Shown here: one piece after another, positions 39,724-50,265 of the stretch
How the letters are laid out: each line of letters starts with the position of its first letter
Numbering within the stretch: the first letter of the stretch is position 1
Assembly: GCA_042408215.1 (NCBI GenBank)
Contig: JAYFMW010000008.1
Span: 256,001-320,000 of the forward strand
Reading direction: 5' to 3'
DNA length: 64,000 nucleotides
Origin: Microcoleus sp.
GTDB taxonomy: Bacteria > Cyanobacteriota > Cyanobacteriia > Cyanobacteriales > Microcoleaceae
The notes under the pieces: generated by a model
Database searches by the model: none
What the model saw: the letters and a program-made list of their open reading frames with translations, nothing else
What the model was told of the DNA's origin: nothing
Translations under genes and position numbers: made by a program

Positions 39724-40179
39724 GGCTTTTCTAATAAGGGGTTACATCCTAGCACACACTTTTAATTTATGAACCGCACCCACAATAAATCTTAATGTAA
39801 GGTGCTTGACAATTTATCCAAAATATGCATTGACAGTCCTGGATGCACTCCAATCAAAGAAACCGGGTTTTTTACCGAATTTGCTGGTCTCAACCAAGTA
39901 TTGTCGTAAATCAAAGAAACCGGGTTTTTTACCGAATTTGCTGGTCTCAACCAAGTATTGTCCTAAAAAAACCAGGTTTCTAGGCTCTCATGCAAAATCT
40001 CAAATCTCAAATAAAATGTCCCTCCCTCGCTCTTCGGCCAATAAAAATCCGATTTCTTGCACACTTTCCCAAAAAGGTTAAGATAGCCTCAAACTGACAT
40101 TTATTCGCCAAAGGGTGAGAGAGGGTGCGATCGGGAAAGACAAGTTTGAGATTAAATCAAGTCCACCCAGACAGGCAGT

Positions 40180-40647: not shown

Positions 40648-41039
40648 TCAACTCTCAAAATTCTCGACGCCCCATGCGGGAGCCTTCTGAGCCGCCCTGA
40701 GCAAAAAAGCAGCCAAATTTTCGATTTGGGCCTGGGACATCCAGCTTTCCGGCACCTGGCGGCACCAAAAACTTGCCTCGCTACCGTCATAAGTCATCGG
40801 TTGTCTTAGATACGCCACCAAAGCATTGATGTTGCTGCGGGGAGGGGTTGCCCCATTGAGGTCAGCCAAAGACAGAGATCTAGTCGGATCGGGCAAATTA
40901 GCTCCTCCGACGTGACAATTGAGGCAATTTTGCTGGAACAAGCGCTTCCCTGCGGACAAATCCTCAGCCGAAAACAAGCGAGTATCTCCCTGTCCAATTC
41001 CAGTGCCACAGGTTCGCTGGCTTGCAAATAGCGAGTCAC
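40648..41039 (-). pseudogene. psbV2: cytochrome c550-like PsbV2, 5'-truncated by an IS derivative and frameshifted
   Basis: CLNCHVGG, PMTYDGSE, AAQKAPAWG; VTRYLQASEPVALELD lies in another frame; no signal peptide; between psbV and petJ. Confidence 0.8.
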
Positions 41040-41240
41040 TTGACACTCCCCGACCGTCGCGGACGGGGATTCTTGGTTCATCGACAAACCTTAAAATTAC
41101 CTATCCTTACGGCATTACTTAAACCTGATACCCGTTCGATTGAACCTGTGTACCGAGCATAATTTAGGCAATCCCAGAGGGCTATATCTCCTCAAGCTTT
41201 TAGAGAATTACTTCTCACGATTCCGTGTGCCCCACGGTAC
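41040..41240 (-). ncRNA. putative TnpB omega-RNA scaffold
   Basis: TACCGTGGGGCACACGGAA...AAGCTTGAGGAGA...TCGATGAACCAAGAATCCCC...GTCAA, the layout seen at tnpB 3' ends. Confidence 0.55.
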
Positions 41241-41430
41241 GTTTAATATTTAAAAGTTTTACTTTTCTGGTTTTGGGCTAGCGTTAGCTTCCCTGACTAT
41301 GTTTATTCGTGGTATTCGTCACCCACTAGCCATTATTATTTTCCGACCCGTCGTTTGAGCTTGGTGTCTCATGTGTATCGGCGGTTATTCTACCTGTGAC
41401 ATACTCATGATGTACCTCCAAACGAACCCC

Positions 41431-41577
41431 ATGTCAAGAGCAAAATCTATCAAAATCAGACTTTCTGAGTATGAATACCAGCAACTACAGCAGGAAGCCG
41501 AAAGACAAGGCACAGGTATGTCTGATTTACTGAGAAAATGTATCTCTAAGTTTCCTGCCGTAAAAAAGCCGTCCTAA
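41431..41577 (+). CDS. small ribbon-helix-helix (CopG/MobC-like) protein inside the IS derivative
   Basis: MSRAKSIKIRLSEYEYQQLQQEAERQGTGMSDLLRKCI strand-helix-helix pattern. Confidence 0.7.
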   Translation: MSRAKSIKIRLSEYEYQQLQQEAERQGTGMSDLLRKCISKFPAVKKPS

Positions 41578-41714
41578 AAGGACGGGGCTTTAAACCCAAA
41601 TTTCCGGTAAATTTTAGATTTCAGATTTTCGATCGAAAAACGACCAGCTAGCAATGCTTAGGAAACTCCAGCCCTCTCCCAATCCAAAATCCAAAATCTA
41701 AAATCTAAAATTGA

Positions 41715-44203: not shown

Positions 44204-44583
44204 TTGACACTCTCAGGTCTAAAGACACGCTCGATTCTGCTGACAGAGTAAAACTCTCGCTACGGCCGTCAAACGCCGTCTACTTAGTCACCAATCGTCA
44301 AGCGATAGTTACTAGCTACTTTTGTCTCCAATGCTTTCAGAATCCATCACTAAGCCAAGACACGGTACGCTCAACATCCTGCCATTATTAGCTCTTTTTG
44401 TGTTACCTCTCAATAGGTGTACTAAGTTGCTGGGATTTCTCCGATACTAGGATGTTTCAACACGTAGATGTTTTTGTTCTTACTCACAACTCAATTGTAG
44501 CACATTTTCAATACCACGGCGGTTAAAACCGCAGGAGTCGCTTCCCTCTCAGGTCTAAAGACTCTGAGTTTCCCGCATCCCGT
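44204..44583 (-). mobile_element. non-autonomous IS200/IS605 derivative (omega-RNA-like, no ORF)
   Basis: Right end GAATC...TCTTTAGACCTGAGAGTGTCAA; left-end hairpin CTCAGAGTCTTTAGACCTGAG; internal TACCGTG...AAAGCATTGGAGA. Confidence 0.72.
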
Positions 44584-44643
44584 ATTATTTTTATGAGACA
44601 ATATTATGCTCGATCGCGCGGGGAAAAATTAGGGTCAGAAATT

Positions 44644-49963: not shown

Positions 49964-50265
49964 TTGACACTCCCCACGGCTAAAAGCCGGGGGATTCCTG
50001 CTTCATCCGTCCTCCCTAGAAAATTAAATACAAGTATTTAACTCTCCCCGTTTGGATACGTCCACAGGCTCACACGGACGGCCCGACCGCGTTTGAAAGG
50101 TTTTATTAAACTTTCTTTTGACTCGCAGTTTTTACAAGATTTAGGATTAGCTACCAGGGTGACGGCTCGTGAGTTCTCCCCTTGACCTACTTCGCTTTTT
50201 AATTATGCGCTTTACCGCTCATTTATTGTACTTCATTTTGTCTGTACATCTCGTCTTTCATCAGG
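49964..50265 (-). mobile_element. non-autonomous IS200/IS605 derivative (omega-RNA-like; left end truncated)
   Basis: GCGGTCGGGCCGTCCGTGTGAGCCTGTGGA...GATGAAGCAGGAATCCCCCGGCTTTTAGCCGTGGGGAGTGTCAA. Confidence 0.75.

Follow-up and report, generated by a model that had tools for sequence, protein, structure and literature searches.

A 64,000-nt stretch of Microcoleus sp. DNA (hereafter the window) contains a 567-bp non-autonomous mini-transposon of the IS605 family that carries neither tnpA nor tnpB and belongs to a large multi-copy family rather than being a one-off. This gene-poor element consists of an Arc-like ribbon-helix-helix (RHH) gene, a predicted promoter and a two-domain RNA of ~360 nt. 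We consider it likely, with a probability of roughly 0.7, that it is maintained with borrowed enzymes, TnpA for movement and TnpB for cutting empty sites. Its unusual parts are the 5′ domain of the RNA and the promoter, rather than the RHH gene.

In the window sequence the element occupies the minus strand from 41606 to 41040, immediately after TTAC. This target tetranucleotide (TAM; 41607-41610, minus strand) is host DNA that abuts the left end (41565-41606), in which a subterminal hairpin spans 41591-41565; the opposite boundary is formed by a right-end hairpin (41069-41047) and a TCAA terminus (41043-41040), all on the same strand. An earlier note on this DNA had reported these coordinates, both end hairpins and the TTAC flank, and they are exact. 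The ends have the features of IS200/IS605 elements: subterminal hairpins on both sides, neither terminal inverted repeats nor a target duplication, and insertion 3′ of a fixed tetranucleotide matched by bases at the foot of the left-end hairpin. The target tetranucleotide covaries with these left-end guide bases. Among the 70 of 113 distinct sites whose left end could be parsed (43 could not), TTAC occurred with AAAG 32 times, TTAT with AAAA 30 times and TTAT with AAAG twice, the remaining six showing other combinations. We take the end tetranucleotides to be those of IS608. On the minus strand a T run lies 3′ of the left-end hairpin, a terminator-like arrangement for read-through from psbV.

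Homology among the copies of the element begins at 41397, runs to 41040 and then stops, which defines a conserved RNA of ~358 nt. The interval between the first omega-RNA stem and the right end measures 200 nt, in agreement with the ~200-nt scaffold proposed earlier, but that proposal overlooked the 5′ ~155 nt. From its 5′ end (minus strand throughout), the RNA begins with a hairpin, P1, and a branched stem, P2 (41343-41397), which are specific to a subfamily and show compensatory changes in type-A copies, where P1 is 100% and P2 94.5% paired. These are followed by what we term the 5′ module (41262-41326), composed of an H-type pseudoknot (41326-41295), a hairpin P4 (41293-41275) and a conserved CCAG(N) strand (41270-41266). 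The pseudoknot helix is 99.2% paired, and two of its three pairs have changed on both sides among 42 copies. The 5′ side of the omega-RNA core (41187-41239) contains stem S1, hairpin S1b and the 5′ strand of the core stem, and the loop of S1 pairs with the right end in 98.8% of cells. An enlarged stem-2 domain of ~105 nt (41083-41188) is multibranched and includes a GNRA hairpin and an (N)CTGG strand (41178-41174); its helices are 82.8-99.2% paired, 13 pairs show double changes, and many unpaired bases in its junction are invariant. The RNA closes with the 3′ strand of the core stem, the right-end hairpin and the TCAA end (41040-41079), as assigned from sequence and covariation. One core-stem pair is broken in the window copy, a pair that covaries across the family; in the type-B subfamily the core stem is weaker (88.7% paired).

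The covariation across copies called for in the earlier note was observed. RNAalifold applied to an alignment of 42 RNA copies (A1) returned 43 pairs, 23 of them with compensatory changes. A hand-drawn structure of 74 pairs was paired in 91.5% of cells of the 42 copies and had double changes at 40 of the 74 pairs, compared with 81.8% and 27 double-changed pairs in shuffles and 28-46% pairing when the structure was slid along the alignment; these controls are lenient, given that the window copy served as the template for drawing and that the copies are related to one another. The folding energy of the window copy alone is unremarkable (z = -1.67). By covariation, the RNA is a 5′ pseudoknot module joined to an omega-RNA core with an enlarged stem. 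The conserved scaffold ends at the right end and places its 3′ hairpin within 10 nt of the guide, as the accessible part of PMC10278001 describes for omega-RNA scaffolds, and its 5′ stem, right-end pseudoknot and core stem are homologous to those in the omega-RNAs of intact tnpB elements. Together with the ends and the 98.8% pairing between loop and right end, the core bears out the view of the element as a tnpB-less IS605 derivative.

The CCAG(N) strand of the 5′ module and the (N)CTGG strand of stem 2 could form a long-range helix. In the 109 of 121 RNAs that could be parsed by anchoring on the two motifs, the variable fifth pair is Watson-Crick in 90, compared with 59.9 in shuffles, and on the tree C-G pairs arose three separate times and U-A once. 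On A1 the same helix is 88.7% paired, which is not above shuffles, and for this reason we regard docking of the 5′ module on the enlarged stem 2 via the five-base strand as probable.

The NIKRTVGHT peptide that had been read as a trace of the tnpB C-terminus is present (41250-41224), but only TVGHT is common to the C-termini of the cognate TnpB proteins. TVGHT is the reading of stem S1, an omega-RNA stem that is double-coded in tnpB genes, and no zinc-finger or RuvC-III residues were found upstream of it within the element. A hidden open reading frame or tnpB remnant in the conserved block was rejected, as indels do not come in triplets and no frame is kept. Searches of Rfam found no family at significance for the RNA (no matches at E up to 10, and one weak match in 12 loci). 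A group I intron was also considered and dropped, there being no Rfam match and the helices around the junction being nested.

A promoter for the RNA is predicted at 41409-41437 on the minus strand, with a -35 hexamer at 41437-41432, a 17-bp spacer and a -10 hexamer at 41414-41409. In the window copy the -35 hexamer is perfect and overlaps the start codon of the RHH gene, and the -10 hexamer is degenerate. Across the family, a TAnnnT box lies 8-16 nt before the conserved RNA start in 84 of 103 distinct promoters, compared with 27% of shuffles; ten further promoters without an anchor were left out of this count. The window copy is among the 19 promoters lacking the box, and a consensus promoter scan of this copy returned no site. 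The stretch is contained, as contigs, in 14 RNA libraries in which DNA may be present, and the contigs of the four libraries examined have no readable strand, ends or level. One contig coincides exactly with 41039-41368 in a run that leaves the psbV2 remnant uncovered, a weak hint of transcription, and in two libraries contigs bridge the RNA into psbV2. In two runs contig depth drops over the RHH gene and rises over the RNA, although contig depth cannot rank the parts of a locus. One RNA-library contig also lacks one copy of a 57-bp tandem duplication located downstream of petJ (window positions 39852-39965).

Divergent from the RNA is the 48-amino-acid RHH gene (41431-41577, plus strand), whose TAA stop codon falls within the left-end hairpin loop. 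The intact reading frame and the position of its stop, both claimed earlier, are confirmed, and the protein scores 34.9 bits against the Pfam NikA-like RHH family PF21983 (cut-off 27). RHH genes in the corresponding place in Nostoc and Scytonema copies encode proteins with 74% and 62% identity to it, respectively. A divergent tnpB was found within 700 nt at 17 of 30 loci with RHH homologs, which is the layout of Arc elements, and the gene in the window, which encodes a small RHH-fold protein inside IS605 ends and divergent from the tnpB position, conforms to that description. Two tnpA genes of the genome stop where the RHH gene stops, in the left-end hairpin loop. Because close homologs hold the same place in Nostoc and Scytonema copies, we propose from these comparisons that the RHH gene is an optional and probably ancestral part of the element. 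The earlier note had treated it as a regulator; it is present, but it corresponds to a known accessory gene (Arc) and is kept at only 6 of 114 family sites. Separately, RHH homologs occur at one shared chromosomal position in several genomes without a nearby tnpB (L265, L269-L272), and these may be domesticated.

The genome contains 21 full-length copies of the RNA with E-values below 1e-54, which argues that the conserved RNA is not a chance occurrence; the 13 closest are 69-84% identical to the window copy. In a DNA search, 41 of 61 related genomes gave matches, which in some were confined to the right end, and a pattern scan of GTDB returned at least 112 stretches, the 80 matches listed with titles all being cyanobacterial. 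Genera among the matches listed include Microcoleus, Nostoc, Scytonema, Coleofasciculus, Symploca, Crocosphaera, Planktothrix and Pseudanabaena. Within the order, matches to a model of the 5′ module were obtained in 23 of 151 genomes, representing 15 of 80 genera, and a search with a further model matched at least 9 of 151 genomes of the phylum, a lower bound. A plasmid search gave one 76-base match. RNA copies were also seen on three viral contigs of 189-200 kb (L203-L205), a possible route between hosts.

The final census of 231 loci collapsed to 131 distinct insertion sites, so that the family comprises at least 131 sites, and this number implies mobility. At the 114 sites with at least 400 nt upstream, none carries tnpA and none carries tnpB between the left end and the RNA on the same strand. 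Sequence resembling tnpB lies within 600 nt at five of the 114, on the opposite strand in two and outside the left end in three, and belongs to other elements. By this census the usual element is ~400-580 bp long and consists of a left end, a short spacer, the promoter, the RNA and the right end, with neither RHH nor transposase genes. An autonomous parent combining this RNA with tnpA or tnpB was not found among the loci listed. At some sites (L129, L140, L162, L110, L169) the long RNA lies behind a left end of a different type than that of the window copy, which suggests that the RNA has been exchanged between end families. In three genomes (L091, L125 and L136), elements of different subfamilies, 14-20% apart, occupy what appears to be the same site, by repeated insertion or replacement. 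One copy (L035; G020:C116:8100-8656) is interrupted by what is presumably the 3′ end of a group II intron.

Other elements of related type were observed alongside this family. A second tnpB-less IS605-type element with different ends is located at 44204-44596 of the window (minus strand); the genome contains eight further long matches to it, and in its 3′ part it is similar to the ends of a small TnpB cluster. At 49964-50200 (minus strand) there is a third right end, accompanied by an omega-RNA-like scaffold, for which we saw no left end and no other long genomic copy. Elsewhere in the genome, another gene-less family of 285-311 bp shares the left end (G000:C17:757021, C20:265192, C28:327524 and C8:86225) and combines a -10-like box with a different structured RNA of ~185 nt, which resembles the 3′ ends of the TnpB genes at C5:672674 and C6:578714.

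Candidate partners for the element are encoded in the same genome. We identified 15 full-length tnpB elements that share both ends, including the left-end hairpin, the TTAC/TTAT targets and the RNA core, which answers the call in the earlier note for a genomic tnpB with the same ends. All 15 TnpB proteins retain the RuvC-I and RuvC-III aspartates, and 13 of the 15 match the pattern for the RuvC-II glutamate. They belong to the largest TnpB family of the genome (38 of 173 TnpB-like ORFs), which is classed as RNA-guided TnpB (NCBIfam NF040570) and occurs in 34 of 36 genomes of the genus; because TnpB is so widespread, co-occurrence with it proves little. In these cognate elements the distance from the first stem to the right end is ~130-150 nt, compared with 200 nt in the window copy, and stem 2 is roughly half the size of that in the window RNA, which adds ~210 nt absent from the cognate omega-RNAs. 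No dedicated orphan TnpB partner was identified among the TnpB-like matches listed. The two tnpA genes that end in the same left-end hairpin are candidate mobilisers, and both lie in elements that have TGAC as target and carry another TnpB family. Candidates for the two roles include a cognate TnpB at G000:C7:304243-305439, a TnpB subfamily at G000:C17:457094 and a TnpA at G000:C20:496116. The proposal that TnpA and TnpB are borrowed in trans therefore finds matching genes of both kinds in the genome, with the reservation that both tnpA genes reside in TGAC elements.

The element is inserted in psbV2, which encodes a cytochrome c550-like protein (Pfam PF14495) and of which a remnant, the single match in the genome, remains at 40648-41039 (minus strand). 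The predicted guide, at the position 3′ of the right end assigned to it earlier, is located at 41039-41020 (minus strand) and consists of host DNA, the psbV2 codons directly after the downstream TTAC. The remnant has lost the start codon and signal peptide and contains a 4-bp frameshift ~50 nt from the junction that is absent in the second carrier (G005). psbV2 was found in all 79 genomes of the genus searched. The element is present in 2 of the best 30 psbV2 loci, and the other 28 are intact and invariably have TTAC or TTAT at the insertion site. The suggestion that the RNA could direct cutting of incoming psbV2 alleles is matched by one intact allele (G008, L043), which has TTAC followed by 20 of 20 guide bases; two others have 2-3 mismatches, but the remaining 25 of 28 have 4-5, so that the guide would fit only alleles very close to this one. 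Relative to the G008 allele, the element replaces 144 bp of psbV2 from one TTAC to the next, including the start codon and signal peptide. A TnpA reaction using two targets, or a later deletion, would explain this replacement. For none of the 21 guides is there another genomic site with TTAY and 12 matching bases, a result that is uninformative since few such matches are expected by chance. The right end also provides a GGAG-like sequence at a distance of 6 nt upstream of a GTG that is in frame with the psbV2 remnant (41039-41052, minus strand); in G005 the frame is open after this GTG and could give a protein without signal peptide.

Between the two carriers, 2 of 567 bp differ in the element, compared with 18 of 881 bp in psbV and psbV2 (Fisher p = 0.005). 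At a further shared site the differences amount to 6-13 of 356 nt in the RNA and 9-54 of ~235-300 in the flank, and there are shared sites where the RNA has diverged as much as the flank or more. Selection on the RNA and a recent spread by homing or by plain recombination would all produce this pattern, which therefore does not tell them apart.

We propose the following sequence of events. The internal promoter would make the ~360-nt RNA, reading through the right end into the host DNA that serves as guide. The RNA would then load a TnpB of the largest TnpB family of the genome, whose omega-RNAs share its core, and may be trimmed at its 5′ end before loading; according to the accessible portion of Nety et al. 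(PMC10278001), TnpB trims its own mRNA. The complex would cut empty sites next to TTAC, such as the donor joint left by excision, another chromosome copy or a near-identical incoming psbV2 allele, and repair would copy the element back. That cutting of an empty site and repair restore the element has been shown for TnpB elements, as far as the text available for 10.1101/2023.03.14.532601 goes. Excision would eliminate copies whose RNA is broken, which would account for the structure being kept at many sites. The 5′ module probably takes the place of the tnpB mRNA, the usual source of omega-RNAs, and of the protection and co-translational loading that this mRNA affords, either by making the free RNA more stable or by assisting its loading in trans. 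The RHH protein would damp the divergent promoter, as Arc does in clostridial elements, and most copies would have lost the gene; clostridial homologs of Arc bind and repress the divergent promoter in the part of Moon et al. (10.64898/2026.09.24.754181) accessible to us.

The family might work in this way while the window copy is a fading passenger, poorly transcribed and fixed in a single lineage by drift or by a costless loss of psbV2. The degenerate -10 box, the broken core pair, the further frameshift in the psbV2 remnant and the presence of the insertion in only 2 of the best 30 psbV2 loci are what such a passenger would show. We nonetheless find this unlikely, as the -35 box is perfect, the RHH frame is intact, the 5′ pseudoknot underwent a compensatory change on the lineage of the window copy and the element differs less between carriers than the flanking genes do; the RNA-library contig that leaves the psbV2 remnant uncovered points weakly the same way. 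A different role is that of a decoy or sponge, an RNA that binds TnpB and lowers the activity of tnpB elements, its extra domains blocking cutting. A core for TnpB binding that is kept while ~210 nt are added beyond the cognate omega-RNAs would suit this role, as would a host with at least 150 TnpB zinc-finger matches, and part of the tnpB mRNA inhibits cleavage according to the accessible text of PMC10278001. A decoy brings no obvious gain to each mobile copy, however, yet the structure is kept at no fewer than 131 sites, and the pseudoknot beside the guide is kept almost perfectly; we judge this reading quite improbable.

An activity independent of TnpB, for instance a 5′ pseudoknot that senses a ligand or a docked two-domain fold that acts as a catalyst, appears very improbable to us. 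The H-type pseudoknot with an A-rich third loop is the fold class of several small riboswitch aptamers. The many invariant unpaired bases of the stem-2 junction and the probable long-range docking could be read in the same direction, as could the weak Rfam match of the 5′ module to the DUF805 motif (E = 0.66, in 1 of 12 loci). No Rfam family matches at significance, however, ordinary omega-RNAs can also bear the 5′ module, and the RNA has retained its omega-RNA core in a genome that offers TnpB in trans. Finally, the conserved block might act as DNA, a MITE feature whose single-strand folding aids TnpA. IS605 elements move as single-stranded DNA (10.1101/2023.03.14.532601, in its accessible part) and their end hairpins work as DNA, but G-U pairs throughout, the retention of two pseudoknots and a GNRA loop, and a -10 box at a fixed distance before the conserved block speak for an RNA, and we give a purely DNA-level role almost no weight.

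The model of the 5′ module picks out exactly the 21 long-RNA copies of the genome, with no other hit at E up to 1, and the module was found at none of the tnpB elements of the genome in the same search. Three genomes carry the module before a normal-sized omega-RNA, without the CCAG(N) strand and without tnpB, and the module is therefore portable. These loci (L214/L291 in G057, L294 in G268 and L295 in G262) are natural intermediates, and one of their omega-RNAs is 71% identical over 35 codons to a TnpB 3′ end. The missing CCAG(N) strand beside a normal-sized omega-RNA fits the docking idea. It is a speculative extension, which we think probably does not hold, that the module is a portable device which guide-only transposons have grafted onto different omega-RNAs, and that in the long form its docking on the nuclease-binding domain gates TnpB loading or cutting, possibly in response to a small ligand. 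If it did hold, the gated module would be a natural switchable guide RNA.

Several components of this system are already known, namely guide-only IS605 elements, standalone omega-RNAs, the Arc repressor and scaffolds of up to 466 nt. In the accessible parts of Meers et al. (10.1101/2023.03.14.532601) and Altae-Tran et al. (PMC10691335), PATEs have omega-RNAs that are acted on in trans and standalone omega-RNAs work in trans. The element shares with both the ends without tnpA or tnpB, the omega-RNA at the right end, the guide from the flank and the need for enzymes in trans. As with PATEs, none of the 114 sites carries tnpA or tnpB between the ends; the absence of any protein-coding gene holds at 108 of the 114 but not at the window copy and five others. 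PATEs as described in those papers are minimal leftovers, whereas the elements here have their own predicted promoter, a 5′ pseudoknot domain of ~155 nt, an enlarged stem 2, an RHH gene at 6 of 114 sites and structural selection on the RNA across many cyanobacterial genera.

The small RHH gene is arranged as in Arc IS605 elements (10.64898/2026.09.24.754181; Zedaveinyte et al., 10.1101/2023.11.20.567912; both in part): it lies on the tnpA side, points away from the tnpB position and shares a promoter region with it. The Arc elements tested in the portions available combine arc and tnpB, with or without tnpA, whereas here only a non-coding RNA is left to repress. Ends, TTAC/TTAT targets and core resemble those of the IS1341-type tnpB-only elements of the genome (e.g. 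G000:C7:304243-305439) and of IS608/ISDra2-type OMEGA systems, but IS1341-type elements encode TnpB and have omega-RNAs of 130-150 nt that overlap the gene and lack the 5′ module. Processed TnpB scaffolds range from 79 to 466 nt in the accessible part of PMC10278001, so that 360 nt is within range; the long ones described there are cut from tnpB mRNA by TnpB, whereas the window RNA has no tnpB frame and is a predicted primary transcript. A large structured RNA inside IS200/IS605 ends is also found in HEARO/IscB omega-RNA and IStrons. This RNA has no Rfam match to HEARO or group I introns and has a TnpB-type guide side and core, and unlike IStrons the element has an internal predicted promoter and no splice sites at its ends. 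In the literature covered (subscription papers and bioRxiv supplements were outside its scope) we did not find this cyanobacterial RNA, the 5′ pseudoknot module or Arc with an RNA alone; the locus tables of the Arc preprint (10.64898/2026.09.24.754181) may include elements with Arc and RNA only.

The family bears on the question of how guide elements without proteins make a stable RNA and win TnpB from the elements that carry tnpB; reviews describe the role of standalone omega-RNAs as unknown. It makes this question testable: more than 100 natural variants are available, the structure is backed by covariation, candidate TnpB and TnpA partners are named from the genome that holds the element, and natural elements that have or lack the 5′ module, the enlarged stem or the repressor provide controls. 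Compact TnpB editors would benefit from the 5′ module should it prove to stabilise guide RNAs or to load them. The locus also documents the loss of the start of a conserved cytochrome gene to such an element in a wild lineage.
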